Origin: Kineococcus radiotolerans SRS30216 = ATCC BAA-149
Lineage (GTDB): Bacteria > Actinomycetota > Actinomycetes > Actinomycetales > Kineococcaceae
Direction of reading: 5' to 3'
Length of the DNA stretch: 32,000 nt
NCBI RefSeq assembly: GCF_000017305.1
Contig: NC_009664.2
Span: 3,270,001-3,302,000 of the forward strand
Shown: piece by piece, positions 1,500 to 29,496 of the stretch
How the letters are laid out: every line of letters begins with the position of its first letter
How positions within the stretch are numbered: the first letter of the stretch is position 1
The notes under the pieces: generated by a model
Databases searched by the model: none
Told to the model about the DNA's origin: nothing
Seen by the model: only the letters and a program-made list of their open reading frames with translations
Position numbers and translations under genes: made by a program

Positions 1500-3090
1500 G
1501 GCTGCGCACCTCCATCTCCGCCGCCCGCCGCTCGTTGCCGTGCTCGCGCCCGGTCACCGACCCCAGCCAGCCCAGGAGGAAGGCCAGCGGGATCGTCACC
1601 AGGCCGGGGTTCTCCAGGGGGAACCAGGAGAAGTCGACCCCGGTGTCGGTGATCATCGACAGCGACGCGCCGGTGGCGGGATCGGTCTTGCCGGAGACCA
1701 CCGGGGAGAACGCGATCAGCACCAGGCAGGACAGCAGCCCGCCGTACATGCTCCACAGCGCCCCGCGCGTGGTGAAGCGGGACCAGAACAGCGAGTAGAG
1801 GATCGTCGGCAGGTTCGCGCTGGCCGCGACGGCGAAGGCCAGGGCCACGAGGAAGGCGACGTTCTGCCCGTTGGCGAAGATGCCGCCGACGATGGCCACG
1901 GCCCCGATGACGACGATCGTCGTCCGGGCCACCCGGACCTCGGCGGCGGGGGACACCTCGCCCTTCTTGATGACGCTGGCGTAGATGTCGTGGGCGAAGG
2001 ACGCGCTGGCGGTGATGGCCAGGCCGGCCACGACGGCGAGGATCGTCGCGAACGCGACGGCGGCGATGATCCCGAGCAGGATCGTCCCGCCCAGCTCGTA
2101 GGCCAGCAGCGGAGCCGCCGAGTTCGCCTTCCCCGGCGCGGCCTTGATGCGGTCGGCGCCGACGAGGGCGGCGGCGCCGTACCCGATGACCAGGGTGAAC
2201 AGGTAGAACACCCCGATGATCCAGATGGCCCAGACCACGCTGCGGCGGGCCTCCTTCGAGCTGGGCACGGTGTAGAAGCGCATGAGGACGTGCGGCAGGC
2301 CCGCCGTCCCCAGCACCAGGGCCAGGGCCAGGGAGAGGAAGTTCAGCTTGGAGGTCTCGGTGGCGCCGTACTGCGCCCCCGGCCCCAGCATCGCCTCGCC
2401 GGCCGACCCCGGGGCGCTGACCGCCGCGCCCAGCAGGTCGGAGAGGTTGAACCCGTAGCGCGAGAGCACCCACACCGTCATGACGGCCGCCCCGACGACG
2501 AGCAGGCACGCCTTGATGATCTGCACCCAGGTGGTGCCCTTCATCCCGCCGACCAGGACGTAGAGGACCATGAGCGCCCCCACGACGGCGATGACGACGT
2601 TCTGCCCGGCGCGGGAGTCGATGCCCAGCAGCAGGGCGACGAGACCGCCCGCCCCGGCCATCTGCGCGAGCAGGTAGAAGAACGACACCGCCAGCGTCGA
2701 GATCGCCGCCGCCGTCCGGACCGGGCGTTCCTTGAGCCGGAAGCTCAGGACGTCGGCCATCGTGAACCGGCCGGTGTTGCGCAGGAGCTCGGCGACCAGC
2801 AGCAGGGCGACGAGCCAGGCGACGAGGAAGCCGATGGAGTAGAGGAAACCGTCGTAGCCGTAGACGGCGATGGCCCCGGCGATGCCGAGGAAGCTCGCCG
2901 CGGACAGGTAGTCCCCGGCGATCGCGACGCCGTTCTGCGGGCCGGTGAAGGAACGGCCGCCGGCGTAGAAGTCGGCCGCGGTGCGGTTGGTGCGGCTGGC
3001 CCGCAGCACGACCACGAGGGTCACGACCACGAACACCAGGAAGATCGAGATGTTGACGATCGGTTCGCCGACCGTCGTGCCGGGGTTCAC
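1462..3090 (-). CDS. actP: Cation/acetate symporter ActP (sodium:solute symporter family)
   Basis: C-terminal 542 codons of tracked ORF 1462..3927. ActP-like N-terminus (ADFYAGGRSFTGPQNGVAIAGDYLSAASFLGIAG) and an SSF multi-TM architecture. GTG 3090 overlaps the DUF485 stop by 4 nt; the yjcH-actP pairing is classical. Confidence 0.9.
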   Translation of the reverse strand: MNPGTTVGEPIVNISIFLVFVVVTLVVVLRASRTNRTAADFYAGGRSFTGPQNGVAIAGDYLSAASFLGIAGAIAVYGYDGFLYSIGFLVAWLVALLLVAELLRNTGRFTMADVLSFRLKERPVRTAAAISTLAVSFFYLLAQMAGAGGLVALLLGIDSRAGQNVVIAVVGALMVLYVLVGGMKGTTWVQIIKACLLVVGAAVMTVWVLSRYGFNLSDLLGAAVSAPGSAGEAMLGPGAQYGATETSKLNFLSLALALVLGTAGLPHVLMRFYTVPSSKEARRSVVWAIWIIGVFYLFTLVIGYGAAALVGADRIKAAPGKANSAAPLLAYELGGTILLGIIAAVAFATILAVVAGLAITASASFAHDIYASVIKKGEVSPAAEVRVARTTIVVIGAVAIVGGIFANGQNVAFLVALAFAVAASANLPTILYSLFWSRFTTRGALWSMYGGLLSCLVLIAFSPVVSGKTDPATGASLSMITDTGVDFSWFPLENPGLVTIPLAFLLGWLGSVTGREHGNERRAAEMEVRSLTGAGAEKATEH

Positions 3091-3422
3091 CGACGGCTCC
3101 CGGGGGCGTTCTCGACCCGGGCGCGCAGCTCCTCGGCCGCGGGGTCGAAGTGCTTGTTGGCCCACCGGACGTACACCGTCGTGATGACGAACGTGGACAC
3201 GAACTGCCCGAGGCCGAACAGCAGCCCCACGGTGATGTTGGACCCCCCGATCCGGGTGCTCATGAACCCGTGGGCGTAGTCCGCGAGCAGGACGTAGGTG
3301 GCGTACCAGACCAGGAACAGGGCCGAGGCCGGCAGGACGAAGCGGCGGAAGCGCCGCTTGAGGGCCTGGAACTCGGGCGAGGCGCGGACCTCTTCGTAGG
3401 GGTCCTCGTGCGGTGTGCTCAT
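3087..3422 (-). CDS. DUF485 (YjcH-like) small inner-membrane protein
   Basis: 111 aa with two hydrophobic helices. The FQALKRRFRRFVLP motif is typical of DUF485. GAGGAGG lies 6 nt upstream of ATG 3422. Directly precedes and overlaps actP. Confidence 0.85.
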   Translation of the reverse strand: MSTPHEDPYEEVRASPEFQALKRRFRRFVLPASALFLVWYATYVLLADYAHGFMSTRIGGSNITVGLLFGLGQFVSTFVITTVYVRWANKHFDPAAEELRARVENAPGSRR

Positions 3423-3510
3423 GCGTGACCTCCTCGTCGACGGAGCGCCACGCTAACCGCAGCGGGGGACCCGGTGCACGCGACAGGCGGGACGTGGACG
3501 CCCCGCGGTC

Positions 3511-3542
3511 CCGCTCCCGGTTGTCGAGCGTGCCGGGAGCGG
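3511..3542. repeat. Perfect 10-bp inverted repeat (CCGCTCCCGG-N12-CCGGGAGCGG) in a divergent intergenic region
   Basis: Read directly: 3511-3520 is the reverse complement of 3533-3542. Located between the yjcH-actP operon start (3422, -) and the small ORF start (3605, +). Function unknown; candidate operator or 5'-UTR hairpin. Confidence 0.5.
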
Positions 3543-3604
3543 CGATGATCTGGTCCGCGGGACCGACCGGGCCCGCGGACGTCGGACGTGGTGAAGGTGG
3601 AACT

Positions 3605-3940
3605 GTGGCGAAGCGGACGTCGACGACCCGGAACAGCGTGTTCCTGGTGACCGCGGTCCTCGGGGCCGCGGGTGCGGTGTTCGCCGTGCTGCGCGCCCGC
3701 TCGCGGTCGGGCAGCGGCGGCGGGCCCGTGCCGGTCCCGAAGTCCGGCGTCCCGGTGCCGGGCGTCCCGGTCGCGCCGGCGGCCCCGGGCTCCGAGATGC
3801 CGCCCCCCGCGCCGATGCCCACGGCGGCGGACTTCCCGCCGGAGGCGCCCTCGAACGCGGTGGAGAACTTCGAGGAGGCCACGGCGCCCCTGGAGGGTGA
3901 GGGGCCCGGCGACGAGGACGGCCCCACGCCGACGCGCTGA
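3605..3940 (+). CDS. Small N-terminally membrane-anchored, proline-rich hypothetical protein
   Basis: Frame of tracked ORF 3413..3940. GAAGGTGG RBS about 5 nt upstream of GTG 3605. One TM helix ([18 protein letters not shown]) followed by a P/G/A-rich acidic tail. High codon-3 G/C. No family recognised. Confidence 0.5.
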
Positions 3941-7346: not shown

Positions 7347-8012
7347 TCAGCGCCGCATGACGCCGCGCGCCAGCCGGTTCCCGAGGACCTGCCCCACCTG
7401 GACGATGATGATGATCGCGGCGACGGCCACGTAGATGATCCCGTAGTCGTAGCGCTGCTTGCCGTAGGTGATGGCGTAGTCGCCCAGGCCCCCGCCGCCG
7501 ACGAGACCCGCCTGGGCGGTCATGTCGACGATGCCGACGAAGATGAACGTGTACCCCAGGATGAGCGGCCCCAGGCCCTCGGGAATGACGACGCCCAGGA
7601 GGATCGACAACCGCGACGCCCCCACCGCGCGCGCGGCCTCGACGACCCCGGGGTCCACGCCGACGAGGCTCTGCTCGACGATGCGCGCCACCGCGAACGC
7701 CGCGGCGAGCGAGATCGCGAACGTCACCGCCTCCGTCCCGATGGTCGTCCCCACCGCCGCGATCTGCAGCGGCGTGATCGCGGCCAGGAAGATGACGAAC
7801 GGGATGGGGCGCACCAGGTTCACGACGAAACCGATGAGCACGAACACGAACCGGTTGCCGAACAGGTTCCCCGGTCGCGTCGCGTACAGCGCGGTGCCCA
7901 GGACCAGGCCCAGGACGCCGGCGGCGACGAGGGAGACGATCGACATGAGCAGCGTCTGCCAGATCGCGTCCTTGAACACGTCGAGCGTGTCGAGGAATCC
8001 GCTGAAGTCCAC
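7347..8012 (-). CDS. metI: Methionine ABC transporter permease
   Basis: 221 aa, 5 TM segments. EAA-loop EAARAVGASRLSILLGVVIPE. GTG start 1 nt after the metN stop. Confidence 0.9.
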   Translation of the reverse strand: MDFSGFLDTLDVFKDAIWQTLLMSIVSLVAAGVLGLVLGTALYATRPGNLFGNRFVFVLIGFVVNLVRPIPFVIFLAAITPLQIAAVGTTIGTEAVTFAISLAAAFAVARIVEQSLVGVDPGVVEAARAVGASRLSILLGVVIPEGLGPLILGYTFIFVGIVDMTAQAGLVGGGGLGDYAITYGKQRYDYGIIYVAVAAIIIIVQVGQVLGNRLARGVMRR

Positions 8013-8013
8013 G

Positions 8014-9033
8014 TCAGGCCTCCTCGTCCACGTCGATCCCGGCCGCGCGCAACGCGTCCAGGGCGGCGTCGGCGTCGCCGCCGAGCTCGTAGGTCAGCGA
8101 CCCGGCCCGCCGCTCGCGGATCTCCGAGACCCCGCCGTAGACGAGTTCCGCGCTCGTCCCGGTCTCCCGGAACGCGGCGTCGATCCGCTGCTGCAGACCG
8201 GGTTCGTCGGTGATGCGGACGGTGACCAGGCGGCCGGGGTGGTGGGTGCGCAGCCGCGCCAGGGTTTCCGCGGAGGGGCGGTCGTGGGTGGCGCTGCGCA
8301 CGAAGCGCTGCGCCGCCGCCGTCCGCGGGCGGGAGAACACGTCGTAGACGTCGCCCACCTCGACGACGCGGCCGTCCTCCATCACCGCGACCCGGTCGGC
8401 GATCTGCCGCACGGCCTCCATCTCGTGGGTGATGACGACGATGGTCACGCCGAGTTCGGTGTTGACCCGGCGCAGCAGCGCGAGCACCTCGGAGGTCGTC
8501 TCGGGGTCCAGGGCGCTGGTCGCCTCGTCGCACAGCAGCAGCGGGGGGTTCGTCGCCAGGGCGCGGGCGATGCCGACGCGCTGCTTCTGCCCGCCGGAGA
8601 GCTGCTCGGGGTAGGCGTGGGCCCGGTCCAGCAGGCCCACGAAGTCCAGGAGTTCCGCGGTGCGGCGGTCGCGCTCGGCCGGGGCGACCCCGGCGACCTT
8701 GAGGGGGTAGGCGACGTTGCCGGCGACGGTCCGGGACCGGAACAGGTTGAACTGCTGGAAGATCATGCCGATCCGGGAGCGCGCCTTGCGCAGCTCGCCC
8801 TCGGACAGCTTCGTCAGGTCCTGGCCGGCGACGTGGACGCTGCCCGAGGTGGGCTTCTCCAGGGCGTTGATCAACCGCACGAGGGTGGACTTGCCGGCCC
8901 CGGAGTAGCCGATGACCGCGAGGACCTCGCCCTCGGCGACGTCGAGGGAAACGGCGTCGACCGCCGTGACGGTCTTGCCGTCACGGCGGTCGAAGCTCTT
9001 GCTGACCTCGGTCAGCGAGATGAGCGTGCTCAC
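8014..9033 (-). CDS. metN: Methionine ABC transporter ATP-binding protein
   Basis: 339 aa. Walker A GYSGAGKST, signature LSGGQKQRVGIARAL, Walker B LLLCDEATSALD. C-terminal NIL-type regulatory domain region. Start overlaps the metQ stop by 4 nt. Confidence 0.92.
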   Translation of the reverse strand: MSTLISLTEVSKSFDRRDGKTVTAVDAVSLDVAEGEVLAVIGYSGAGKSTLVRLINALEKPTSGSVHVAGQDLTKLSEGELRKARSRIGMIFQQFNLFRSRTVAGNVAYPLKVAGVAPAERDRRTAELLDFVGLLDRAHAYPEQLSGGQKQRVGIARALATNPPLLLCDEATSALDPETTSEVLALLRRVNTELGVTIVVITHEMEAVRQIADRVAVMEDGRVVEVGDVYDVFSRPRTAAAQRFVRSATHDRPSAETLARLRTHHPGRLVTVRITDEPGLQQRIDAAFRETGTSAELVYGGVSEIRERRAGSLTYELGGDADAALDALRAAGIDVDEEA

Positions 9034-9980
9034 TTGCCCTGGGCGGCCTTCGCGTCAGACTCGACCTTGGTCAGCTCGGCCTGCAGGTCGGCCGCGGGGG
9101 TGTCCTGGACGATGGCGCTGGGGTTGTCCTGCAGGAACACCTCCTGCACGGCCGGGTCGTGCCAGAGGGCGGCGAGCTCCAGGTACGTCTCGTTCGCCGC
9201 GTCCTCCTTGCGGGCGGTGAAGATGTTCACGTACGGGGCGGCCGCGGCGGAGGTCGGGTCGTCCTGGACGATGACGGAGTCGGCGGGCAGCTTCGCCGCG
9301 GTGGCGTAGTTGTTGTTGACGATGGCCGCGGCCACCGAACCGCTCTGCAGCGCGCTGGCCGTCTGGTCGGCGGCCACCGGGGTGACCTCGACCTTGGCGG
9401 ACTCGATGTCGTTGGTGGTGGAGAACGCGGTCCCGCCGTCCTTCAGGGTGACCAGGCCGGCCTCCTGCAGCACCAGCAGGCCGCGAGCCTCGTTGATCGC
9501 GTCGTTGGGGATGGCGACCTTGGCGTCGGCGGGCAGCTCCGCCGCCGACTTCGCGGTGAGGGAGTACAGCGGCAGCGGGTACACGGCGGTGGCCCCGATG
9601 GGCTGCAGGTCGTCGCCGGCCTCGACGTTGTAGTTCGCCAGGTACTGGATGTGCTGGAACTGGTTGAGGTCGAGCTCCCCCTGCTTCAGCGCCGGGTTCG
9701 GCAGCGTGTAGTCGGAGAAGTTCACCAGCTCGACGGTGACGCCCAGCTGCGACTGCGCGAGCTCGGTGTAGGTGTTCCAGTACGGCAGCGACTTGTCGGC
9801 GACGCCGATCGTGACCGTCTCGCCGGAACCGGAACCGGCGGCCGCCGTGCTGGTGGTGTCGTCGCGGGTGCCGAGGACGACGGCGACGATCACGGCGATC
9901 ACGGCCAGGGCGGCGACGATCCCGATGAGGAGACCGCGACGCTTGGGCTTGTCGGGCAGAGCGGGGGCGGGGCTGGACAC
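9030..9980 (-). CDS. metQ: Methionine ABC transporter substrate-binding protein (NlpA/MetQ family)
   Basis: MetQ-like body (TVTIGVAD...GVTVELVNFSDYTLPNPALKQGELDLNQFQHIQYL). Start moved from tracked ATG 10151, which lies inside the riboswitch, to GTG 9980. That GTG is preceded by GGAGAG and followed by an N-terminal TM/signal anchor. Confidence 0.85.
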   Translation of the reverse strand: MSSPAPALPDKPKRRGLLIGIVAALAVIAVIVAVVLGTRDDTTSTAAAGSGSGETVTIGVADKSLPYWNTYTELAQSQLGVTVELVNFSDYTLPNPALKQGELDLNQFQHIQYLANYNVEAGDDLQPIGATAVYPLPLYSLTAKSAAELPADAKVAIPNDAINEARGLLVLQEAGLVTLKDGGTAFSTTNDIESAKVEVTPVAADQTASALQSGSVAAAIVNNNYATAAKLPADSVIVQDDPTSAAAAPYVNIFTARKEDAANETYLELAALWHDPAVQEVFLQDNPSAIVQDTPAADLQAELTKVESDAKAAQGK

Positions 9981-11101: not shown

Positions 11102-11605
11102 GTGGATTCGACCGAACTGAGGGCCCTGCAGAAGCCGCTGAAGGACGCCTACCGCGAGGACCCGGCCAGCGCGCTGGTCCCCGCGCGGGCCGTGGCGGTG
11201 CTGGACGGCCAGTCCATCGGCGTCTCCGTCGACGGCTTCGCCGGCACCACCCGGGCCGGGCTGCACCCGGCCGCCGGGGGCGACGGGACCGAGGCGTGCT
11301 CGGCGGACATGCTCTGCGAGGCCGTCGCGGCCTGCGCGGGGGTGACGCTGCGCAGCGTCGCCACCGCCATGGGCGTGGAGCTGCGCAACGCGTCGGTCAC
11401 CGCCGAGGCGCACTGGGACGCCCGCGGCACCCTGGGGGTCTCGCGCGAGGTCCCCGTCGGGATCACCGACGTGACCCTGACCTTCACGTTCACCTCCGAC
11501 GCCGACGAGGCCACCGAGGCGAAGATGGTCTCCCTGGCCGAGCGCTACTGCGTCATCGCCCAGACGCTGCAGAACCCGCCCACGGTCAGCGTCCGGCGCG
11601 GCTGA
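11102..11605 (+). CDS. OsmC/Ohr family peroxiredoxin-like protein
   Basis: 167 aa. OsmC-fold pattern with the two conserved Cys regions (CSADMLCEAVAAC and AERYCVIAQTL). Confidence 0.8.
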   Translation: MDSTELRALQKPLKDAYREDPASALVPARAVAVLDGQSIGVSVDGFAGTTRAGLHPAAGGDGTEACSADMLCEAVAACAGVTLRSVATAMGVELRNASVTAEAHWDARGTLGVSREVPVGITDVTLTFTFTSDADEATEAKMVSLAERYCVIAQTLQNPPTVSVRRG

Positions 11606-11662
11606 CCCCGTGCGGACGCGCCGCCGCCCCGACCCCGTGGGGGGGGCGGGGCGGGCGCCGTC

Positions 11663-13120
11663 CTACGCGCGGGCCTCCTGGCGCCGGACCGCGGAGCGGC
11701 CCAGCAGCGCGACGACGACGACGCCGACCGCGAACGCGAGCAGGACCCCGAGGTTCGCGTAGGCCCAGGTGCCCTCCCGGCCGCCGATCGGGCCGAGCAG
11801 GTAGCCCTGCCAGGTCAGCCAGCCGGCGCCGGAGTTCGTCACCAGGCCCCACCCGAGGAACGTGGCGACGAGCATCGTCCCCACCGCGAGGGGACGCACC
11901 GAGCCGTAGCGCCCGCGGGGGTCCAGCAGCTCGGCCTCGGCGTAGTCGCCCCGGCGCATCGCCAGGTCGGCCAGGAAGATCCCCGCCCAGGCGGCGATCG
12001 GCACGCCCAGGGTGATGAGGAACCCCTGGAACGGGACCAGGAAGTCCTGCGAGAAGAACGCGATGTAGACCGCGCCGGCCACCATGAGGGCGCCGTCGAC
12101 GAGGACGGCCACCGGCCGCGGCACCCGCAGGCCGACGTTCAGCAGCGCCAGGCCGGAGGAGTAGATGTCCATGACCGCGCCGCCGACGAGACCGAGGACG
12201 GCGACGACGACGAACGGGACGAGGAACCACGTCGGCAGGATGCCGGTGAGCGCCCCCACCGGGTCCTGCGCCACCCGCGCGCCCAGGTCGGGGGAGGACC
12301 CCACCAGGAGCGCGCCGAAGACCAGCAGGACGGCCGGGCCGATGGAGCACCCCAGCGTCGTCCAGAGCACGACCCCGCGGCTGGAGGCGTCGCGCGGGAG
12401 GTAGCGGGAGTAGTCGGCGGCCGCGTTGGCCCAGCCGAGGCCGAAACCCGTCATCACCATGGTGAACGCCCCCACGACCGCCGCCGTGCTCCCGGCGGGG
12501 ATCGCCGTGACGGCGTCGAGGTCGATGCTGCCGGCGGCGAAGACGATGTAGAGGACCGTCAGCACCGCGGTGACGACGGTGATCCAGCGCTGCATCCGCA
12601 TGATGACCCTGAACCCGAGGGTCCCGCCGAGCACGATCAGCCCCACGACGACGACGAGGGCGACGAGCTTCGTGCCGGTGCCGCCGCCCGCCCCGAGCCG
12701 GTCCAGCACGGTGGCGGTGGCCAGGACGGCCACCGCGGCCAGCGACGTCTCCCAGCCCAGCGTCAGCAGCCAGGAGACCAGCGACGGCAGCCGGTTCCCG
12801 TCGACCCCGAAGGCCGCGCGGGACAACGTCATCGTCGGCGCCGAGCCGCGCTTGCCGGCGATGGCGACCAGGCCCACGAGGACGTAGGACAGCAGCACCC
12901 CGCCGACGGAGACGAACGTCGCCTGCCAGAACGAGATCCCGAACCCCAGGACGAACGAGCCGTAGCTGACGGCGAGGACGGAGACGTTCGCGGCGAACCA
13001 CGGCCAGAACAGGTCGCGCGGGCGGCCGTGCCGCTCGGCCGCGGCGACGGCGTTGACGCCGTTCAGCTCGACGCCGACACCGCCGACCTTCGCCTCCGGG
13101 ACGACGGGGATCTCGCTCAC
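11663..13120 (-). CDS. NCS1 family permease (cytosine/purine/uracil/thiamine/allantoin/hydantoin-type)
   Basis: C-terminal 485 codons of tracked ORF 11663..14434. 12-TM architecture and an NCS1-like N-terminus (ERHGRPRDLFWPWFAANVSVLAVSYG). GTG 13120 overlaps the LLM gene's stop by 4 nt. Confidence 0.85.
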   Translation of the reverse strand: MSEIPVVPEAKVGGVGVELNGVNAVAAAERHGRPRDLFWPWFAANVSVLAVSYGSFVLGFGISFWQATFVSVGGVLLSYVLVGLVAIAGKRGSAPTMTLSRAAFGVDGNRLPSLVSWLLTLGWETSLAAVAVLATATVLDRLGAGGGTGTKLVALVVVVGLIVLGGTLGFRVIMRMQRWITVVTAVLTVLYIVFAAGSIDLDAVTAIPAGSTAAVVGAFTMVMTGFGLGWANAAADYSRYLPRDASSRGVVLWTTLGCSIGPAVLLVFGALLVGSSPDLGARVAQDPVGALTGILPTWFLVPFVVVAVLGLVGGAVMDIYSSGLALLNVGLRVPRPVAVLVDGALMVAGAVYIAFFSQDFLVPFQGFLITLGVPIAAWAGIFLADLAMRRGDYAEAELLDPRGRYGSVRPLAVGTMLVATFLGWGLVTNSGAGWLTWQGYLLGPIGGREGTWAYANLGVLLAFAVGVVVVALLGRSAVRRQEARA

Positions 13121-14508
13121 GGGGTCTCCTCGGGGACGGGGTGGCGGTACCGGGCCGCCGGGTGGTCGGGGGGCAGCCGGCGGCGGCCCGCACCGAAGAT
13201 CGCTTCTCGCAGCGTACGTCCTGGGGCGTCCCCGCCGGGGGCCGGCGCCACCAGCCCGCGCCGGCGCAGTTCCGGCACCACCTGCTCGCAGAACTCCCGG
13301 TAGGAACCCGGCACCACGAAGGGGGTGAGGTTGAAGCCGTCGACGCCGCTCTCCTCGACGAGGCGCTCCATCGCGTCCACGACCGCGGTCGCCGTCCCGG
13401 TGAACACGAACTCGCGCATCCCGAACCGGAGGAAGTCCGCCCTCGCGCGGGCCACCGTCTCGCCCCGGTACCGCTCGACCTGGGTCCGCCCGCCCTCCGT
13501 CCGCACGTCGGAGAAGTCGCCCCGGGGGTCCAGCGCGGACAGGTCGACGCCGGTCATCGAGGCGTAGTACGCGCGGGCCGCCTCCTGGTCCACCCAGGAC
13601 AGGTACTCCTCCAGCCGGGAGCGGGCGTGGTCCTCGTCGCGGCCGAGGACCACGCTCAGCCCCACCAGGGTGCGCAGCGCGTCCGGGCCGCGTCCGCGCC
13701 GGGCGGCCCGGGCGCGCAGGTCCTGCACCTGCGCGCGCAGGGTCGCGGCGTCGCGGCCCTGCAGGAACACGACCTCGGCGTGGGTGGCGGCGAACTCCCG
13801 GCCGCGTTCGCTGGCCCCGGCCTGGAACACGACCGGGGTGCGCTGCGGTGAGGGCTCGACCTTGAAGTACCCGTCGCAGCGGAAGTACCGGCCGTGGTGG
13901 TGCACCTCGTGGACCCGGCGCGGGTCGGCGTAGCGGCGGGCCTGCCCGTCGTGCAGGACGGCCGCGTCCTCCCAGCTGCCCTCGAACAGCCGGTAGCTGA
14001 GCTCGAGGTGCTCGTCGGCCATGTCGTAGCGCTCGTCGTGCGGGGCCAGCGGGGCCCGCCCGTGCAGGTCGCTGACGACCGGCGAGGACGTGGTCACCAC
14101 GTTCCAGCCGATCCGGCCCCGGGTGAGGTGGTCCAGCGTCGCGAACCGGCGGGCGTTGGGGTAGGGCCCCTCCAGGCTCGTGGAGGACGTCACGGCGAAC
14201 CCCAGCCGGCGCGTCACCGCCGCCATCGCCGGGACGAGCAGCAGCGGGTCGTTGGTGGGCATCTCGACGCCCTGCTCGAAGGTGACGTCGGGGGTGGTGC
14301 CCCCCAGCACGGGGTAGCCGGGGGAGTCGGCGAGGAACAGCAGGTCGAAGCCGCCGTCCTCCAGCAGCCGCGCCAGCGACGTCCAGTGCTCGAGGTCCAG
14401 GTAGCGGTCGGTGTGCTGCTCCGGGTGGGCCCACAGGCCCTGGCTGGTGAGGTTCGGGGCGTTGATCTCGAAGGCGCTGAGCAGCAGCGGGGGCCGCACG
14501 GGGTTCAC
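13117..14508 (-). CDS. LLM-class FMN-dependent monooxygenase, NtaA/DszA/SnaA subfamily
   Basis: C-terminal 463 codons of tracked ORF 13117..15591. N-terminus LLLSAFEINAPNLTSQGLWAHPE..., length and internal blocks (GRIGWNVVTS, VVFQAGASERGREFAA) are typical of the approximately 450-aa NtaA/DszA group. GTG 14508 overlaps the deaminase stop by 4 nt. Confidence 0.85.
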   Translation of the reverse strand: MNPVRPPLLLSAFEINAPNLTSQGLWAHPEQHTDRYLDLEHWTSLARLLEDGGFDLLFLADSPGYPVLGGTTPDVTFEQGVEMPTNDPLLLVPAMAAVTRRLGFAVTSSTSLEGPYPNARRFATLDHLTRGRIGWNVVTTSSPVVSDLHGRAPLAPHDERYDMADEHLELSYRLFEGSWEDAAVLHDGQARRYADPRRVHEVHHHGRYFRCDGYFKVEPSPQRTPVVFQAGASERGREFAATHAEVVFLQGRDAATLRAQVQDLRARAARRGRGPDALRTLVGLSVVLGRDEDHARSRLEEYLSWVDQEAARAYYASMTGVDLSALDPRGDFSDVRTEGGRTQVERYRGETVARARADFLRFGMREFVFTGTATAVVDAMERLVEESGVDGFNLTPFVVPGSYREFCEQVVPELRRRGLVAPAPGGDAPGRTLREAIFGAGRRRLPPDHPAARYRHPVPEETP

Positions 14509-15515
14509 CCGGCGCGGCCCAGCCAGGCGAGCAGGCCCGCGCCGAGGCGGTGGCGGGTCGCGGGGCTCATGCCCTCGATCCGCAGGCCGTGCCCGGCGAG
14601 CGCCGCGAGGTCCTCGTCGGCCAGTCCCCAGACCTCGCGCGCGACGGCGTACTGGTCGCTGACGCCGCGGCCGAACCACAGCTGGTCGTCGGCGTTGAGG
14701 GTGATCCCGACGCCCGCGGCGTGCAGGGCGGGAGCGGGGTGGGAGGCGAGGTCGGGGACGATCCCCAGCGCCACGTTGGACACGGGGGCGACGTCGCAGA
14801 CGACGCCCTCCTCGACCAGGCGCCGCACGAACGCGGGGTTCTCCACCGAGCGGACGCCGTGGGAGATGCGGGTGGCGCCCAGCACGTCGAGGGCCTCGGC
14901 GACGCACTCCCAGCCCCCGGTCTGCCCGGCGTGGGCGACGACGGGCAGGCCGGCGGCCCGGGCCGCGGCGGCCGCGGCGGCGAACCGGTGCAGGCCGGAG
15001 GGCTCCTCGAAGCCGGCCGTCCCGAAGGCGGTGACCCCGCGGCCGGCGAACTCGACGGCGACCGCGGCGAGCTCCGCGGCGATCGGCTCGTCCTGGTCGG
15101 TGTTGACCGTGAGCAGCGCCCCGACCTCCACGCCGAGCCGGGTGCCGGCCTCGCCGAGGGCGTCCACGACGACGCGGGTGACCTCGCGCAGGCTGCCCAG
15201 CCGCGGGGCGTAGAGCTGGGGTTCGATGGCGGGTTCGAGGTAGACGACGCCCTCGGCCGCCTCCTGGGCGACCAGGGCCCGGCACAGCTCCGCGAGGTCG
15301 TCGAGGTCGGCCACGAGCGCCGGGACGCGACCGTAGGCCTCGAAGAACCGCCAGACGTCGGGCCACCCCTCGCCGGTGGCGGCCGGGCCGCCGCGCACGG
15401 GCAGGTCGACCGGGGCGCCGCGCCGGCGGGCGAGCTCCAGCACGGCCTCCCGCGGGTAGGACCCGTCGAGGTGCGCGTGCACGTGCACCTTGGGCAGGGC
15501 GGTCAGGGAACGCAC
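14505..15515 (-). CDS. Adenosine/AMP-deaminase-fold amidohydrolase with atypical HAGQ motif
   Basis: C-terminal 336 codons of tracked ORF 14505..16388. ADA-family metal-site blocks are present: PKVHVHAHLDGS (HxH), VAHAGQ, ISHG, LNADDQ. Start GTG 15515 puts HxH at residues 13/15, as in known ADAs. A minus-strand TACGTT lies 7 nt upstream, suggesting a leaderless mRNA. Confidence 0.8.
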   Translation of the reverse strand: MRSLTALPKVHVHAHLDGSYPREAVLELARRRGAPVDLPVRGGPAATGEGWPDVWRFFEAYGRVPALVADLDDLAELCRALVAQEAAEGVVYLEPAIEPQLYAPRLGSLREVTRVVVDALGEAGTRLGVEVGALLTVNTDQDEPIAAELAAVAVEFAGRGVTAFGTAGFEEPSGLHRFAAAAAAARAAGLPVVAHAGQTGGWECVAEALDVLGATRISHGVRSVENPAFVRRLVEEGVVCDVAPVSNVALGIVPDLASHPAPALHAAGVGITLNADDQLWFGRGVSDQYAVAREVWGLADEDLAALAGHGLRIEGMSPATRHRLGAGLLAWLGRAG

Positions 15516-15570
15516 CCTCCACAACGTAGGGGCGCGGGCGCCGCGTGTCGCAGGAGCGCTCGTTCTGGGA

Positions 15571-15589
15571 GCATCCATCCCGTGGATGC
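15571..15589. promoter_or_regulatory. LysR-type T-N11-A box with dyad symmetry (GCATCCA-N5-TGGATGC)
   Basis: Perfect 7-bp inverted repeat read directly. The inner TCCATCCCGTGGA satisfies T-N11-A. It is centred about 65 nt upstream of the predicted leaderless start of the deaminase operon, in the divergent lysR spacer; this is the classical LTTR recognition-site position. Confidence 0.6.
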
Positions 15590-15632
15590 ACGCGGGGGTG
15601 AGCGCGGTGGTGAGCGCGGGGGCGAGCTGGAC

Positions 15633-16505
15633 GTGCGGTCCCTGCGCTACCTGGTGGCGGTCGCCCGGGAGCGCAGCTTCACCGCGGCCGCCGCGTCGCT
15701 GCAGGTCTCGCAGCCGGCGCTGAGCCAGTCCATCGCGCGGACGGAGCAGCTCGTGGGGGGCCGGCTCGTCGTCCGCGACGCGCGCGGGGTGGCCCGGGAG
15801 GGCTCCGCGCTGACCCCGGCGGGCCAGGCGCTGGTGGCGGACGCGGCGCGCGTCGTCGAGCTGCTCGACCGGGCCCTGGTCCGGGCCCGCCGCACCGCGG
15901 CGGAGGGGGAGCGGGAACGCCTCGCCGTGGGCATCGGGACCTCCACCCCGCGCTGGGTGTCGACCCGGCTGGTGCAGGCCTCCCAGGAGAGCCCTGACCT
16001 CGACGTGGTGCTGCGGCACGTGCCGTGGGGGCAGGAGGTCGCCGGTCTGGTCGACGGCCGGGTCGACGTCGTCTTCGTGCACGCGGCGCCCGGTGAGGTG
16101 CTCGACGAGCGGGTGCGGGCGGTCCACGTCGCCGACACCCGGCGGATCGCGGTGTTCGCCGCCGGTCACCCGCTGGCCGGGCGGGCCTCCCTCGACATCG
16201 CCGACCTCGACGACGAGCCCATCGTCGACGCCGCCTCCGGCCGCGAGACGTGGCTCGTCGAGCCGCGGCCCTCCGGGGCGGTGCCGCGCGTGGTGGGCCC
16301 GCCCGCCTCGACCGCCGAGGAGATGCTCGCCCTCGTCGCCTCCGGCGCGGGCATGGCCATCACGGCCGAGGCGGTCGCCGCCGCCCACCGCTCCGACGAC
16401 CTCGCCTACGTGCCGCTGCGGGGGCTGGAGCCGCTGCGGCTGCTGCTGCTGGCCCTGGCCGACGACGGGCGGCCGGCGGTGGAGGACCTGCTCGCCTCGT
16501 TCTGA
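15633..16505 (+). CDS. LysR family transcriptional regulator
   Basis: C-terminal 290 codons of tracked ORF 14550..16505. N-terminal wHTH LRYLVAVARERSFTAAAASLQVSQPALSQSIARTE. Divergent from the deaminase operon. Start GTG 15633 was chosen from the family N-terminus; the exact start is uncertain. Confidence 0.85.
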   Translation: MRSLRYLVAVARERSFTAAAASLQVSQPALSQSIARTEQLVGGRLVVRDARGVAREGSALTPAGQALVADAARVVELLDRALVRARRTAAEGERERLAVGIGTSTPRWVSTRLVQASQESPDLDVVLRHVPWGQEVAGLVDGRVDVVFVHAAPGEVLDERVRAVHVADTRRIAVFAAGHPLAGRASLDIADLDDEPIVDAASGRETWLVEPRPSGAVPRVVGPPASTAEEMLALVASGAGMAITAEAVAAAHRSDDLAYVPLRGLEPLRLLLLALADDGRPAVEDLLASF

Positions 16506-16682
16506 GGGGCCGGGGGAGCGCGCCGCCCCGCCGTCAGCGCCCGAGCAGGTTCACCGCGACCGTCGCGGCCAGGGCCACCGCGGACACCGGCGCCCGGACG
16601 GCGCGGGCGACGCTGGCGTGGGCCGAGGAGGCCCTTGCCGAGCTGGACCCCCCGGCCCGGGCGGGCACGTAGGATCGCGCCG

Positions 16683-17402
16683 GTGAGCTCCCGCGTCGCG
16701 CTGCCGGCCGCCCCGGCGCGGGAATCGCTCGCCGATTCCGTGCACGCCTCGCTGCTGACCTGGCTGATGGACGGCGGCGCGGCCCCCGGCTCGCCGCTCA
16801 GCATCGACGGCCTCGCCCGCGACCTGGGGGTCTCCCCGACGCCGGTGCGCGAGGCCCTGGTGCGCATGGAGTCCACCGGTCTGGTGGAGCGGGCCGCGAT
16901 GCGCGGGTACCGCGTCGCGGGGATGCTCTCGCGCGAGGAGATCGACCAGCTGATGGACGCGCGGCTGCTGCTGGAGTGCCACAACGTCGCCCTGGCGGCG
17001 CAGCGGGTCGAGGAGGACCTGCTGGTGCGGTTGTCCGCGACCGTGGAGCGCATGGCGGTGGCCCCCCGGGGGCCCTCGTTCGCCGACTACCGCGACTACC
17101 ACCAGGCCGACAACGAGTTCCACCGCCTCCTCAACCGCGCCGGTGGCAACGGCTTCCTCGCCGACGCCTTCGAGGGGCTCAACGGGCAGCTGCAGCGGTT
17201 CCGGCTGCGGGCGCTGGGGCAGGGGGTCACCGACGCCGACCTCGCCGTCGCCGAGCACGTCGCGGTGGTCGACGCCCTGCGCGTCCGCGACGGCGACGCC
17301 GCCGCGGCGCGGATGCGCGAGCACCTCGAGGCGGTGCGCTCGCGCGCCCTCGACGACCGCGCGGCGGCGGGGCTCGACGCGGCCCCGGAGCCCGCCCCCT
17401 GA
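16683..17402 (+). CDS. GntR family transcriptional regulator, FadR subfamily (FCD domain)
   Basis: wHTH LSIDGLARDLGVSPTPVREALVRMESTGLVE plus a C-terminal FCD-type helical domain. TAGGAT (16670-16675) lies 7 nt upstream of GTG 16683, suggesting a leaderless start. The tracked TTG 16635 start was not preferred. Confidence 0.8.
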   Translation: MSSRVALPAAPARESLADSVHASLLTWLMDGGAAPGSPLSIDGLARDLGVSPTPVREALVRMESTGLVERAAMRGYRVAGMLSREEIDQLMDARLLLECHNVALAAQRVEEDLLVRLSATVERMAVAPRGPSFADYRDYHQADNEFHRLLNRAGGNGFLADAFEGLNGQLQRFRLRALGQGVTDADLAVAEHVAVVDALRVRDGDAAAARMREHLEAVRSRALDDRAAAGLDAAPEPAP

Positions 17403-17429
17403 GGACCGCCGCCCGGCGGCGCGGTTCGT

Positions 17430-17454
17430 TTGACACCCACATCCTATTGGATGT
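17430..17454. promoter_or_regulatory. Putative promoter -35 (TTGACA) and palindromic operator ACATCC-TATT-GGATGT upstream of the MFS gene
   Basis: TTGACA at 17430-17435. Perfect 6-bp inverted repeat at 17439-17454. This is the most A/T-rich patch in the area, lying between the GntR stop (17402) and the MFS start (17499). Confidence 0.5.
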
Positions 17455-17498
17455 TGTATCGGCGCGCCGTCGACGTCGCCGACCCAGGAGTGAGCGCA

Positions 17499-18836
17499 GT
17501 GACCCCGCCGTCCCCCTCGGAGCAGACCGCCCTGGTCGACTCCGCCGTCCGCCGCTCGGTCAAGCGGCTCATCCCCTTCCTCCTCCTCATGTACGTCATC
17601 GCGTTCCTCGACCGCAGCAACGTCGGGTTCGCCAAGGAGGAGCTCGAGGTCAGCATCGGCCTCTCGGCCGCCGCGTACGCCTTCGGCGCGGGGCTGTTCT
17701 TCGTGGGCTACGCCGTCTTCGAGGTGCCCAGCAACCTGATCATGCACCGGGTCGGGGCCCGCTGGTGGATGGCCCGGATCATGGTCACCTGGGGCGTCGT
17801 CGCCACCGCCTTCATGTTCGTCCAGGGCGAGACGATGTTCTACGTCCTGCGGTTCCTCCTCGGCGTCTGCGAGGCCGGGTTCTTCCCCGGCGTCCTGCTC
17901 TACCTCACCTACTGGTTCCCCGAGAGCCGCCGCGCGTTCGCGACCGGGCTGTTCCAGATGGGCCTGCCGCTGGCCAACATCGTCGGCGGGCCGCTGTCCG
18001 GCGGGCTGCTGGAGCTGGACGGGTTCGGCGGGCTGGCCGGGTACCAGTGGCTGTTCATGGTCGAGGGGCTCGTCGCCGTCGTCGTCGGCGTCATCGCGCT
18101 GTTCGTCCTCACCGACCGCCCCGAGACCGCCCGGTGGATGCCGGCCGAGGAGAAGGCGGCCCTGGCCGCCCGCCTCGCCGAGGACGACGCCGCCCGCGGC
18201 GAGACGGGCGGCCACCTCGGGTGGGGCAAGGCCCTGCTGAACCCGCGTGTCCTCTACTTCGCCCTCGTCTGCCTCTGCATCCAGGCCGCGGTGTACGGGC
18301 TCACCTTCTTCCTGCCCACCCAGGTCTCGGCCATCACCGGGCGCGAGGTCGGGTTCCAGGTGGGTCTGCTCACCTCGATCCCGTGGGTGTGCGCCCTGGT
18401 CACGATCGCGGTCGTGCCGCGCTTCGCCGACCGCCACCGGCGCCACCGCGAGGTCGGCGCCGCCCTGCTCGTCCTGTCCGGGGCCGGCATCGCCGTCTCC
18501 GCGGTGGCGCAGAACGCCCTGGTCGCCATGCTGGCCCTGTGCGTCGCCGCCGTCGGGTTCGTCACCTGCCAGCCGCTGTTCTGGACCCTGCCCACCCGCT
18601 ACCTCAGCGGCGCGGCCCTGGCCGCCGGGTTCGGGCTCATCAACGGCCTCGGCAACCTCGGTGGTTTCGTCGCCCCCAACATCCGCGTCTGGGCGGAGGA
18701 GACGTTCGACTCGACCACCGCGGGCCTGTTCGTCCTGGGCGGGATCGCCGTGCTCGGGGCCGTGCTCCTGCTCGCGACCAAGCTGATGGCCACCGCCCCG
18801 CAGGACGAGGCGGCTCCCGTCGCCGCCACCCGCTGA
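17499..18836 (+). CDS. MFS transporter, anion:cation symporter (ACS) family, TtuB/DgoT-like organic-acid permease
   Basis: Tracked ORF 17430..18836. ACS-type motif AFLDRSNVGFAKEEL, and 12 TM segments with a central loop DRPETARWMPAEEK. Start moved to GTG 17499 (AGGAG 8 nt upstream); the upstream tracked codons are A/T-ending and cover the operator. Confidence 0.85.
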   Translation: MTPPSPSEQTALVDSAVRRSVKRLIPFLLLMYVIAFLDRSNVGFAKEELEVSIGLSAAAYAFGAGLFFVGYAVFEVPSNLIMHRVGARWWMARIMVTWGVVATAFMFVQGETMFYVLRFLLGVCEAGFFPGVLLYLTYWFPESRRAFATGLFQMGLPLANIVGGPLSGGLLELDGFGGLAGYQWLFMVEGLVAVVVGVIALFVLTDRPETARWMPAEEKAALAARLAEDDAARGETGGHLGWGKALLNPRVLYFALVCLCIQAAVYGLTFFLPTQVSAITGREVGFQVGLLTSIPWVCALVTIAVVPRFADRHRRHREVGAALLVLSGAGIAVSAVAQNALVAMLALCVAAVGFVTCQPLFWTLPTRYLSGAALAAGFGLINGLGNLGGFVAPNIRVWAEETFDSTTAGLFVLGGIAVLGAVLLLATKLMATAPQDEAAPVAATR

Positions 18837-18873
18837 CCACCGGAACACCCGCCCGACACCTCAGGAGACCACC

Positions 18874-19635
18874 ATGGAGTTCCCCACCCGCCGCACCGCC
18901 GTCGTCACCGGCGTCGGCGCCCCCCGCGGCATCGGCCGGGTCGTCGCCCGCCGGCTGGCCGCGGACGGCTGGAGCCTGGGCCTCGTCGACATCTCCGGCG
19001 ACGGCGTCGTGGAGATCACCGAGGAGCTGCGCGCGGCCGGGGCCGACGTGCACGGCGTGGCCACCGACATCTCCGCGCCGGACTCCGTGAGCGCGGCCTT
19101 CGCCGAGTTCGACGCCGCGCTGCCTCCGGTCGTCGGGCTGGTGAACCTGGCCGGCATCGCCAACCCGACGCCGATCCTCGAGATCACCCTCGCCGAGTGG
19201 GACCGGACGATGGCCGTCAACGCCACCGGGTCGCTGCTGATGATCCAGGCCGCCGCCCGGCGCATGGTCGAGGTCGGGGTGGGGCGGATCGTCAACACCT
19301 CGTCCATCACCGCCGTGGACGGGGGCGGGACGTTCTCCAAGACCGCCTACGCCGCCGCCAAGGCCGCCGTCCTGGGCCTGACCCGCGGTGCGGCGCGCGA
19401 GCTCGGCCCGCACGGCATCACCGCCAACGCGATCCTGCCCGGCCCGATCGACACCGACATCATGGGCGGGAGGCTGACCGACGAGCGCAAGGCCGCGATG
19501 TCCGCGGGCATCCCGGTGGGGCGCGTCGGCACCCCGGGCGACATCGCGGCGATGGTGGCGTTCCTGCTCTCCGCGGAGGCCGGGTTCGTCAACGGCGTCA
19601 GCTACCAGGTCGACGGCGGCAAGCACATCAACTGA
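18874..19635 (+). CDS. SDR family oxidoreductase (FabG-like)
   Basis: 253 aa. Rossmann TGVGAPRGIGRVVA, catalytic YAAAKAAV (YxxxK), NAILPGPIDT. AGGAGA RBS before ATG 18874. Confidence 0.88.
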   Translation: MEFPTRRTAVVTGVGAPRGIGRVVARRLAADGWSLGLVDISGDGVVEITEELRAAGADVHGVATDISAPDSVSAAFAEFDAALPPVVGLVNLAGIANPTPILEITLAEWDRTMAVNATGSLLMIQAAARRMVEVGVGRIVNTSSITAVDGGGTFSKTAYAAAKAAVLGLTRGAARELGPHGITANAILPGPIDTDIMGGRLTDERKAAMSAGIPVGRVGTPGDIAAMVAFLLSAEAGFVNGVSYQVDGGKHIN

Positions 19636-19653
19636 GCCTCCCGCCGGCCGGAG

Positions 19654-19683
19654 CGCCCGCGTCCCCGCACGGGGGCGCGGGCG
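19654..19683. terminator. Hairpin between convergent SDR and galM genes (putative bidirectional terminator)
   Basis: CGCCCGCGTCCCC (19654-19666), GCAC loop, GGGGGCGCGGGCG (19671-19683). 13-bp stem with one G-U/mismatch. Confidence 0.45.
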
Positions 19684-19701
19684 TTCCGCGTCCGCGGGGG
19701 T

Positions 19702-20772
19702 TCAGGCGGAGAACACGTACTCCGTCGTGGAGCGGAACTCCTCGCCGGGACGCAGGACGGAGTCCCCGAGCCCGGCGAACGCCGGCTGGTTCACCGCGTC
19801 GGGCAGCAGCTGCGTCTCCAGGCACAGCGCGTCGCCCTGGCGCACCGGCCGGCCCTCGAGCGTGCGCCAGGACCCGTCGAGGAAGTTGCCGGTGTAGAAC
19901 TGCAGACCCGGCAGGTCGGTGCGCACCGTGACGGTCCGCCCGCTGCGCGGGCCGGTCACCGAGCCGACCTCGCGCAGGGACCCGGGGGAGTCCAGGACCA
20001 GGCAGTGGTCGTAACCGCCCGCGGTGAGCAGCTGCGCGTCGGCGTCGCGCAGCCGGTCCCCGACGCGGGTGGGAGTGGTGAAGTCGAACGGCGTGCCCGC
20101 GACGGGGGCGAGCTCGCCGGTGGGGACCAGGTCCGCGTCCACCGGCAGGTAGCGCGAGGCGGAGAACCGCGCGACGTGGTCCTCCACCGACCCCGACCCG
20201 TCGAGGGCGAAGTAGGCGTGGTTGGTGAGGTTCACCGGGGTGGGGGCGTCGGTCGTGGCCGAGTAGTCCAGCCGCAGGACGACCCGGCCGTCCTCCTCGC
20301 GCAGCGAGTACGTCACCGCCGCGTCCAGGGAACCCGGGAAGCCCATGTCGCCGTCGGCGCTGCGCAGGGACAGCCGCACGCCCGGGGTCCCGTCGACGTC
20401 GACCTCCTCCGCCCGCCAGAGCCGCTGGTCGAAGCCCTCCGCCCCGCCGTGCAGCGCGTTGGGCCCGTCGTTGAGGGGGACCCGGGACTCCCGGCCCTCC
20501 AGGGTGAAGCGGCCCCGGGCGAGGCGGTTGGCCACCCGTCCGACGACCGCGCCGGGGTAGCCCTCGGCGGCCTCGTAGTCCGCGACCCCCGGCAGGGCGA
20601 CGACGACGTCGCCGAGGGCGCCGGCCGCGTCGGGGACGCGGACCCGGTGGAGGGTGGCGCCGCGGGTCAGGACCGCGGCGCTCGCGCCGGAGGGCAGGCG
20701 CAGTTCCCAGCGCTCGACGGGTTCACCGCGGCGGGTCCGCCCGAAGGGTTCGCCGTGCAACGTTGCAGTCAT
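19702..20772 (-). CDS. galM: Aldose 1-epimerase (galactose mutarotase)
   Basis: 356 aa. Family blocks GRVANRLARGRFTLEG, PNALHGG, GFPGSL, VNLTNHAYF, GYDHC. Confidence 0.88.
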   Translation of the reverse strand: MTATLHGEPFGRTRRGEPVERWELRLPSGASAAVLTRGATLHRVRVPDAAGALGDVVVALPGVADYEAAEGYPGAVVGRVANRLARGRFTLEGRESRVPLNDGPNALHGGAEGFDQRLWRAEEVDVDGTPGVRLSLRSADGDMGFPGSLDAAVTYSLREEDGRVVLRLDYSATTDAPTPVNLTNHAYFALDGSGSVEDHVARFSASRYLPVDADLVPTGELAPVAGTPFDFTTPTRVGDRLRDADAQLLTAGGYDHCLVLDSPGSLREVGSVTGPRSGRTVTVRTDLPGLQFYTGNFLDGSWRTLEGRPVRQGDALCLETQLLPDAVNQPAFAGLGDSVLRPGEEFRSTTEYVFSA

Positions 20773-24846: not shown

Positions 24847-24929
24847 CGTTCTCCCCGCCGGGGGCGATGACTTCCGGCGCCGCGTGCGGTCGGATGGGTA
24901 CGACCCGCCCCCGGCGACAGGAGACCACC

Positions 24930-29490: not shown

Positions 29491-29496
29491 CGGTCC

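Follow-up and report, generated by a model that had tools for sequence, protein, structure and literature searches.

What does a bacterium gain from an operon in which the genes for a deaminase-fold hydrolase, a flavin-dependent monooxygenase and a nucleobase-type permease are chained stop codon to start codon? Such an operon was examined here in a 32-kb window of actinomycete DNA (Kineococcus radiotolerans, NC_009664.2, positions 3,270,001 to 3,302,000; GC 70–79%); by the window we mean this whole stretch. The operon encodes an adenosine deaminase (ADA)-fold metal hydrolase, a luciferase-like monooxygenase (LLM) dependent on flavin mononucleotide (FMN) and an NCS1-family permease, and a LysR-type regulator gene diverges from it (Table 1). 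These four identities had been proposed in a preliminary description of the sequence, and profile searches bear them out. Both the ADA-like/LLM and the LLM/permease joins are GTGA stop/start overlaps, at 14505–14508 and 13117–13120, exactly where that description had placed them. The permease GTG start lies within the LLM stop overlap, with a GAGGAG Shine-Dalgarno-like motif just 5′ of it. A second in-frame GTG at 14499 is an alternative LLM start, which would leave a small gap after the ADA-like gene. Judged from this layout the three genes appear to be translationally coupled, and we infer that they are co-transcribed.

Conservation of the ADA-like/LLM pair

LLM homologues number in thousands. 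With an alignment of 26 LLM homologues as the query, we searched one genome for each species; this returned 78 loci, in which, as in five further look-up loci, relatives of all four window proteins were located. In 28 of the 29 distinct scan loci with an LLM identity of at least 58%, an ADA-like gene (56–85% identity) lies immediately upstream of the LLM gene; the sole exception is a Kribbella locus (L023) without an ADA-like gene. At lower LLM identity the pairing loosens. Specifically, one locus (L035, LLM 55% identical) has the ADA-like gene downstream of the LLM and slightly further off, and two loci with 53–55% identity (L032, a second Kribbella locus, and L034) have no adjacent ADA-like gene, L034 having an ADA-like copy at a distance of about 6 kb, on the contig that also carries L019. 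No close ADA relative was found in the approximately 45 loci with an LLM identity of 50% or less. The same ADA-like/LLM pairing is seen in three of the look-up loci (L084–L086), and an NtaA-type LLM gene follows even the most divergent Gln-type ADA-like member (P0243, 50% identity; for the Gln see below).

The preliminary description had left synteny to be checked; the arrangement is not private to this genome and is kept across phyla. Carriers in Actinomycetota are Kineococcus, Blastococcus, Cryptosporangium, Amycolatopsis, Mycolicibacterium, several Microbacteriaceae, Nocardioides and a member of the Propionibacteriaceae. Outside this phylum the pair is carried by an Acidobacteria metagenome-assembled genome (MAG) and by Alphaproteobacteria, namely Shinella, Kaistia, Elstera, a Rhodospirillales MAG and Rhodobacteraceae including Celeribacter. 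The order of divergent LysR, ADA-like and LLM genes is borne out by independent, Pfam-labelled gene calls for Kineococcus, Curtobacterium, two Rhodobacteraceae contigs, Subtercola and a JGI contig, and the 4-bp ADA/LLM overlap is repeated in the calls of Kineococcus, Curtobacterium and the JGI contig. Full-text literature searches found no published description of the deaminase/LLM pair or of the trio, and no characterised orthologous operon with a known substrate, and this agrees with the view that the module is uncharacterised.

Several related arrangements were looked at and set apart. Two apparent gene fusions, which could have served as Rosetta-stone evidence, are not true fusions: in P0036 an LLM is duplicated internally, and P0241 is a read-through due to a frameshift. 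Paenibacillus LLM paralogues of 47% identity were rejected as relevant context. Read by eye from the translations, their surroundings contain an M20 amidohydrolase, a Dpp-type ATP-binding cassette (ABC) transporter and an ACAD-like gene, no ADA-like gene, and are unrelated. A second locus of Kineococcus vitellinus (L071:2640–10955) carries a paralogous system. It comprises an ABC importer having an NMT1-type binding protein, an LLM (48% identity) and a different ADA-like paralogue, which is 34% identical and has the canonical HAGE and HLHLHLEAA as its first motif; a further LLM (40%) and a protein of FAH-like appearance, judged by eye, complete it. The pairing of an ADA fold with an LLM thus recurs in a second, Glu-type lineage.

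Two enzymes, an exchangeable importer and a divergent regulator

The ADA-like protein covers positions 1–313 of the 330 of the ADA-fold profile PF00962 and contains the motifs HVHAHLDGS, GTAGFEE, AHAGQTGG, ISHGVR and LNADDQ. Its nearest PDB entries are 3rys (E 5.5e-36) and 3ou8 (E 3.8e-32), which we take to be AAur1117 and PA0148, adenine deaminases of cog1816. All 32 LLM-linked homologues keep the four metal ligands (HxH, the AHAGQ His and the first LNADD Asp), and those of the window protein align with the ligands of 3rys, 3ou8, 6n9m and 6n91. The equivalent of His238 (in ISHG) and the Asp-Asp pair (in LNADD) are present in the window protein as in all compared structures, and the Asp-Asp pair and the Gly of TAG are invariant among the 32. 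One catalytic position is different. At the equivalent of Glu217 (mouse ADA numbering) all four best PDB matches have HAGE, whereas every one of the 32 LLM-linked homologues has HAGQ, with Gln. When 1.8 billion proteins (cluster representatives) were searched with HMMER, 6697 relatives were obtained, of which the best 150 were inspected at this position. Among these, Gln is limited to the few clusters that share about 50% identity or more with the query, while clusters at or below 46% identity have HAGE or rare Leu or Phe variants.

In mouse ADA, N1 of the purine receives its proton from Glu217, mutation of which lowers kcat by about three orders of magnitude; the second Asp of the Asp-Asp pair contacts N7. 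A Gln fixed throughout a clade therefore points to a substrate ring nitrogen that needs no protonation or to chemistry other than classical deamination. On this basis the Gln-type clade probably acts on a ring nitrogen that is already alkylated, cationic or lactam, or else departs from classical deamination. The remaining motifs place the protein with neither known deaminase type. Its first motif HxHLDG(S) is that of adenosine deaminases, while the adenine deaminases 3ou8 and 3rys have HLH(L/I)EG, and its third motif GTAGFEE fits neither DLAGDE nor GLDSAE; the cog1816 adenine-deaminase combination of HLH(L/I)EG and GLDSAE is thus absent from it. The protein scores 227 bits with the adenosine deaminase model TIGR01430, just above the cutoff of 216.55, and at most 220 bits with the NF0068xx adenosine-deaminase equivalogs, whose cutoffs are 412–549. 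Its database name is 'adenosine deaminase', a plain label that appears unsafe for the Gln-type clade. The "deamination-type hydrolysis" of the preliminary description is accordingly not secure, the catalytic Glu being Gln throughout the LLM-linked clade.

The nearest Glu-type relative examined, P0247 (42% identity), is encoded on an ENA metagenome contig (L087:940–7002). It ends a cluster of PNP_UDP_1, IF-2B/MtnA-like, RuBisCO-like protein and split transketolase-like genes, a gene content that looks typical of methylthioadenosine (MTA) or 5′-deoxyadenosine salvage.

The LLM aligns over residues 10–435 with positions 1–421 of the 422 of TIGR03860. Among solved structures its relatives are, in bits, LadA (417), the riboflavin lyase RcaE (374), DmoA (351) and HcbA1 (282), followed more weakly by DszA (223), YtnJ/MoxC (202), NtaA (176), EmoA (141), SsuD (57) and RutA (37); the corresponding E-values are 7e-124 for LadA (3b9n), 7e-111 for RcaE (5w48), 7e-104 for DmoA (6ak1) and 1e-8 for RutA. 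With the RutA model TIGR03612 it reaches 52.9 bits against a cutoff of 498.3. By PDB and profile scores, then, the LLM is placed in the LadA/RcaE/DmoA subgroup of the NtaA/DmoA family and not with RutA, a placement that the preliminary description had proposed to check. That description had also held the composition to be unlike that of the Rut pathway, as the RutA score and the absence of RutB–E homologues bear out. His17 of LadA aligns with Leu20 of the LLM and His20 with an invariant Gln23; substrate-side residues differ from those of RcaE in the alignment as well. In RcaE, NtaA, EmoA, DmoA and SsuD the carbon next to N or S is hydroxylated and a carbonyl product is released. Membership of a subgroup that carries out C–H hydroxylation and heteroatom dealkylation argues for oxidative dealkylation with an aldehyde product rather than for Rut-like ring opening. 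A link to riboflavin catabolism through RcaE was considered and rejected: the 2025 paper on the riboflavin pathway, in which RcaE is described (PMC12746152), mentions no ADA-fold enzyme.

PF02133 (Transp_cyt_pur) aligns with the window permease over profile positions 2–416 of 440. The available specificity models for NCS1 permeases are unmatched (TIGR00800, 86.6 bits against a cutoff of 353; CytX TIGR02358, 51.4 against 310). There is no PDB relative at E ≤ 0.01, the Mhp1 and CodB structures included, and solved structures gave no clue to specificity. Of the 28 ADA-LLM loci, 18 have an NCS1 orthologue (61–88% identity) after the LLM. In some others the importer is of the ABC kind and its binding protein NMT1/THI5-like (PF09084), and Rhodobacteraceae have a PotABCD-like ABC system, all scores being below equivalog cutoffs; a ThiBPQ-type importer was considered for Alphaproteobacteria and rejected, the system being PotABCD-like (ThiP at most 43 bits). 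The importer is interchangeable between these three kinds. The NCS1 permease, which the preliminary description had made part of the module, is thus present in this genome and not a fixed part of the system.

Accessory genes also vary. A PF01613 flavin reductase gene lies directly 3′ of the LLM in at least eight ADA-LLM loci, about a third, and a YghZ-type aldo-keto reductase gene directly 3′ of it in about ten (NF007388, 483–508 bits against a cutoff of 448); neither gene was found anywhere in the 32-kb window. The picture of a minimal operon with no flavin reductase and no downstream enzymes is thus correct for this genome but not for the orthologous loci. A co-encoded aldo-keto reductase fits an aldehyde product. 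In two Mycolicibacterium loci a flavin-containing amine oxidase gene (PF01593) directly follows NCS1 (L015:9647–11179; L017:9917 onward), which hints that an amine may be released. The Rhodospirillales MAG locus (L018) has an apparent AzgA-like purine permease and a second LLM, ureide-pathway genes lie beside the Celeribacter locus, and the JGI contig L086 carries an amidase and a RibD_C protein, the RibD_C gene being just past the NCS1 and amidase genes. No RutB-, RutC- or RutD-type hydrolase was found in any locus examined. A riboswitch might have given a clue to the ligand, but an Rfam scan of 10 orthologous loci at gathering thresholds gave only a tRNA.

The regulator has the HTH_1 and LysR_substrate domains, the divergent orientation and the intergenic T-N11-A dyad of a LysR-type protein, and its homologues (43–83% identity) are divergent and adjoin the ADA-like gene in most orthologous loci. 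The T-N11-A box noted upstream in the preliminary description exists, as part of a perfect palindrome that is the sole copy in the window; none of 100 shuffles gave a palindrome match. The dyad CATCCAC-N3-GTGGATG stands at the same place in three Kineococcus relatives (L001, L007 and, with one mismatch, L020). We regard the palindrome as a candidate LysR operator, that is, a putative binding site. It also bears on the start of the ADA-like gene. Since ADA-like homologues have about 320–350 aa and align with the window protein from about residue 22, and since the alternative start ATG 15578 falls within the palindrome, the most likely start appears to be GTG 15515 or TTG 15524, giving 336–339 aa. 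The tandem 12-bp repeats beyond the palindrome would encode GGERGGERGGE were LysR to start at GTG 15582. Matches to sigma-70 promoter and intrinsic-terminator consensus sequences were absent from 11300–16700, a result that is uninformative at 75% GC.

Table 1. Features of the operon and its divergent promoter region (window coordinates)
Feature	Coordinates	Strand	Remarks
NCS1-family permease, 485 aa	11663–13120	−	third operon gene; PF02133, E 3.7e-40
FMN-dependent luciferase-like monooxygenase (LLM), 463 aa	13117–14508	−	PF00296; TIGR03860 (NtaA/DmoA) 455 bits, cutoff 279.7
ADA-fold metal hydrolase, 336 aa from GTG 15515	14505–15515	−	first operon gene; PF00962, E 7.8e-62
Palindrome GCATCCA-N5-TGGATGC, candidate LysR operator	15571–15589		divergent promoter region
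Three tandem 12-bp repeats CGCGG(G/T)GG(T/C)GAGC	15591–15627		between palindrome and LysR start
LysR-type regulator, 290 aa	15633–16505	+	PF00126 (HTH_1), 2.1e-18; PF03466 (LysR_substrate), 1e-21

Proposed reactions and rival explanations

We propose that the operon is a substrate-inducible catabolic or salvage unit, in which an imported substituted amino-N-heterocycle undergoes hydrolysis and oxidative heteroatom dealkylation. As a general scheme we consider this about evenly poised between right and wrong. LysR would bind the palindrome and activate the operon when substrate or product is present. The NCS1 permease would import a base-sized compound, a task that would fall to the NMT1-type or PotABCD-like ABC importer in other lineages. 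The ADA-fold metal enzyme would hydrolyse an exocyclic C–N bond, giving the oxo (lactam) form and ammonia or an amine. With Gln in place of the general-acid Glu, the adjacent ring nitrogen would presumably be already alkylated or cationic; alternatively, the chemistry may be unlike classical deamination. The LLM, using FMNH2 and O2, would hydroxylate the carbon adjoining a heteroatom, and we infer that the substituent would then leave as an aldehyde, as in RcaE, NtaA and DmoA. FMNH2 would come from a flavin reductase supplied in trans in this genome, and the aldehyde would be reduced by the YghZ-type aldo-keto reductase where this is co-encoded and by an enzyme acting in trans in this genome.

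The most likely substrate would be a purine-type base with an N- or S-linked alkyl substituent, for which the evidence is suggestive only. It consists of the nearest PDB relatives, 3rys and 3ou8, together with the invariant Asp-Asp pair and TAG Gly, and of the AzgA-like permease, the ureide genes and the MTA-salvage-type context of P0247.

Several points weigh against the scheme. The two enzymatic steps may come in either order. The change of Glu to Gln could mean that the ADA-like protein is no deaminase at all. The solved structure nearest to the LLM is that of LadA, an alkane hydroxylase and not a heteroatom-dealkylating enzyme. The aldo-keto reductase and the flavin reductase, being absent from the window and from most loci, may be accessory or unrelated. 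As to purines, the hints are individually weak, the AzgA-like permease and the ureide genes coming from one locus each, and the typical ligands of the three importer families differ widely (nucleobases; organosulfur and pyrimidine compounds; polyamines), so that a purine is not singled out.

A bolder version of the scheme is that the Gln-type ADA-fold enzyme and the LadA/RcaE-like LLM form an unrecognised bacterial flavin-dependent route for the degradation of alkylated purine bases; we regard it as rather unlikely. The LLM would release the alkyl substituent in the form of an aldehyde, and the modified deaminase would take a substrate without need of ring-nitrogen protonation. Candidate substrates include cytokinins (N6-alkyladenines), adenines methylated at N1 or N6 that derive from RNA turnover, and methylthio-adenines. 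Such a route would not depend on cytokinin oxidase/dehydrogenase (CKX) or on Rieske oxygenases. A single bacterial CKX has been characterised (PMC8234997), and an aldehyde-forming activity in mycobacteria has no assigned enzyme (PMC11925245). If the bolder version is true, the operon is a candidate for the largely unknown bacterial activity that breaks down cytokinins or modified bases.

Four other explanations have been weighed against the proposed hydrolysis and dealkylation. The operon could perform Rut-like ring cleavage, with the ADA-like enzyme making a lactam, the LLM using a flavin-N5-peroxide to open the ring at its amide bond in the way that RutA acts on uracil, and the aldo-keto reductase reducing the semialdehyde in the role of RutE/YdfG. 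The set of LLM, flavin reductase, aldehyde-reducing enzyme and nucleobase importer does parallel the path from cytosine through uracil into Rut, and HcbA1 (282 bits) and DszA (223), which reportedly use flavin-N5-peroxide, are significant relatives of the LLM. RutA itself is very distant, however, at 37 bits in the PDB and 52.9 against 498 with TIGR03612; the closest relatives LadA, RcaE and DmoA perform C–H hydroxylation or dealkylation, and the loci examined have no RutB/RutC/RutD-type hydrolase. We consider ring cleavage unlikely. Quite unlikely, in our view, is organosulfur scavenging, in which the LLM, like DmoA, DszA and SsuD, would cleave a C–S bond of a sulfur-bearing amino-heterocycle (for instance a methylthio-purine or an MTA-derived compound) to a thiol and an aldehyde, and the ADA-like enzyme would handle the adenine part. 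There is no sign of sulfur economy in the operon proteins (Cys+Met 1.2–2.1%, like their neighbours), the LysR protein is not CysB-, Cbl- or MetR-like (CysB 38.6 bits) and the loci have no sulfite- or thiol-handling genes. The score of DmoA (351 bits) would fit the idea, as would the MTA-salvage-type cluster of the nearest Glu-type ADA relative and the loci where an NMT1/SsuA-like ABC importer, a flavin reductase and the LLM match the ssuEADCB architecture. Within the window a MetNIQ transporter is encoded 1.5 kb away from the operon, but this adjacency is not kept in Kineococcus L001.

Salvage of the thiamine pyrimidine would employ every conserved component and account for a dispensable general-acid Glu. 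After CytX/ThiY/ThiB-like import the ADA-fold enzyme would hydrolyse formylaminopyrimidine (FAMP) or a related amide, the LLM would oxidise the aminomethyl carbon to give 5-formylpyrimidine, and the aldo-keto reductase would yield hydroxymethylpyrimidine (HMP). Two of the three importer families do have thiamine- or HMP-specific members, NCS1/CytX (a 51-bit match) and NMT1/THI5-like PF09084. The alphaproteobacterial ABC system, in contrast, is PotABCD-like (ThiP at most 43 bits); control is by LysR and no thiamine pyrophosphate (TPP) riboswitch was seen in 10 loci; thiD, thiE and tenA are not among the neighbours, and the invariant Asp-Asp and TAG features look purine-type. The route would also spend O2 and NADH where simple TenA hydrolysis would do, and we hold it to be very unlikely. 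The same low probability is given to ordinary purine salvage, where a normal adenosine or adenine deaminase would work with a purine/cytosine importer and the LLM would be an unrelated passenger. The database name 'adenosine deaminase' and the TIGR01430 score just over its cutoff (227 against 216.55) speak for it. Gln in 32 of 32 clade members, with HAGE kept in neighbouring clades save for a few non-Gln variants, speaks against it, as do the specific adenosine-deaminase equivalogs lying far below their cutoffs (at most 220 bits against 412–549) and the strict linkage to one LLM orthologue group across phyla, with overlapping stop and start codons.

Neighbouring genes and relation to known systems

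Beyond the permease gene, at a distance of about 1.5 kb, the window encodes a MetNIQ-type methionine ABC transporter (7347–9980; permease, ATPase with NIL domain, NlpA lipoprotein). It is separated from the permease gene by DUF7711 and OsmC genes, and the adjacency is not kept in Kineococcus sp. DK003. On the other side, next to LysR, lie a GntR(FCD)-MFS-SDR block and an aldose 1-epimerase gene (16635–20772), an arrangement found also in Kineococcus sp. DK003 (L001:755–4883) and not in other genera; the block is probably a separate sugar-acid unit. Further genes are a sodium:solute symporter open reading frame (ORF) of about 821 aa (1462–3927), whose SSF domain covers only residues 320–730, which means a long N-terminal extension or an over-called start, and a RibD_C-domain reductase gene whose stop codon overlaps the start of the next gene, that of a FAD_binding_4/ALO-type oxidase (24867–26821). 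A RibD_C gene is common to this segment and the orthologous JGI locus L086, which may be coincidence. Finally, a radical SAM gene (27500–28789, minus strand), a CofC-like guanylyltransferase gene (28810–29910, minus strand) and an ORF with a faint CofH_C match (29931–30962, plus strand) make 27500–30965 look like part of an F420/FO biosynthesis region.

The coupled ADA-like/LLM pair is spread over soil, plant-associated, freshwater and marine bacteria of at least three phyla. The fixed change of Glu to Gln marks a compact and easily recognised subfamily, annotated as 'adenosine deaminase' and probably with another function. The operon is thus a well-bounded and promising object for the discovery of enzyme functions. 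Identification of the substrate would correct a systematic mis-annotation and give the LadA/RcaE/DmoA flavoenzymes a new reaction; it might also throw light on the bacterial recycling of modified or alkylated nucleobases, or of a related fragment of a vitamin or hormone.

Among known systems, Rut (RutA–G of E. coli) is similar in combining an LLM and its separate flavin reductase with a nucleobase importer and an aldehyde-reducing step, and in the use of a heterocycle as a nitrogen source. It differs in that the operon LLM is no RutA, homologues of RutB, C, D and E are absent, and the importer is NCS1 or ABC and not RutG; the operon has an obligatorily coupled ADA-fold enzyme and is under LysR control, whereas Rut is controlled by the TetR-type RutR. 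RcaE of Microbacterium maritypicum belongs to the same LLM subgroup and strips an N-linked side chain from an N-heterocycle as an aldose/aldehyde (PMC12746152). Its substrate riboflavin, however, has no hydrolysable amidine amino group. The rca cluster reportedly comprises riboflavin kinase, FMN hydrolase and ribokinase and no ADA-fold enzyme. LadA of Geobacillus is likewise a two-component FMNH2 enzyme, but it hydroxylates terminal alkane carbons and has no linked deaminase-fold or nucleobase-transport genes.

On the hydrolase side, the cog1816 adenine deaminases (PA0148, AAur1117) and Add have the same fold, metal ligands, His238 equivalent and Asp-Asp pair, while HAGQ, GTAGFEE and the coupling to an LLM set the window clade apart. 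PA0148, AAur1117 and Patl2390 are summarised in PMC13296781. The NtaA/NtaB, EmoA/EmoB and ssuEADCB systems resemble the operon in joining an LLM with a small flavin reductase for oxidative C–N or C–S cleavage to an aldehyde, and ssuEADCB also in the NMT1/SsuA-type binding protein with ABC importer of some orthologous loci; their LLMs are much less similar, and they act on aminocarboxylates or sulfonates, with no amidohydrolase as partner. The operon works like the two-component LLM catabolic systems Rut, Rca, Nta, Emo and Ssu but belongs to none of these. It is not a categorically new kind of system: two-component LLM operons are well known, as are ADA-fold deaminases, and it is their strictly coupled pairing that is apparently undescribed.

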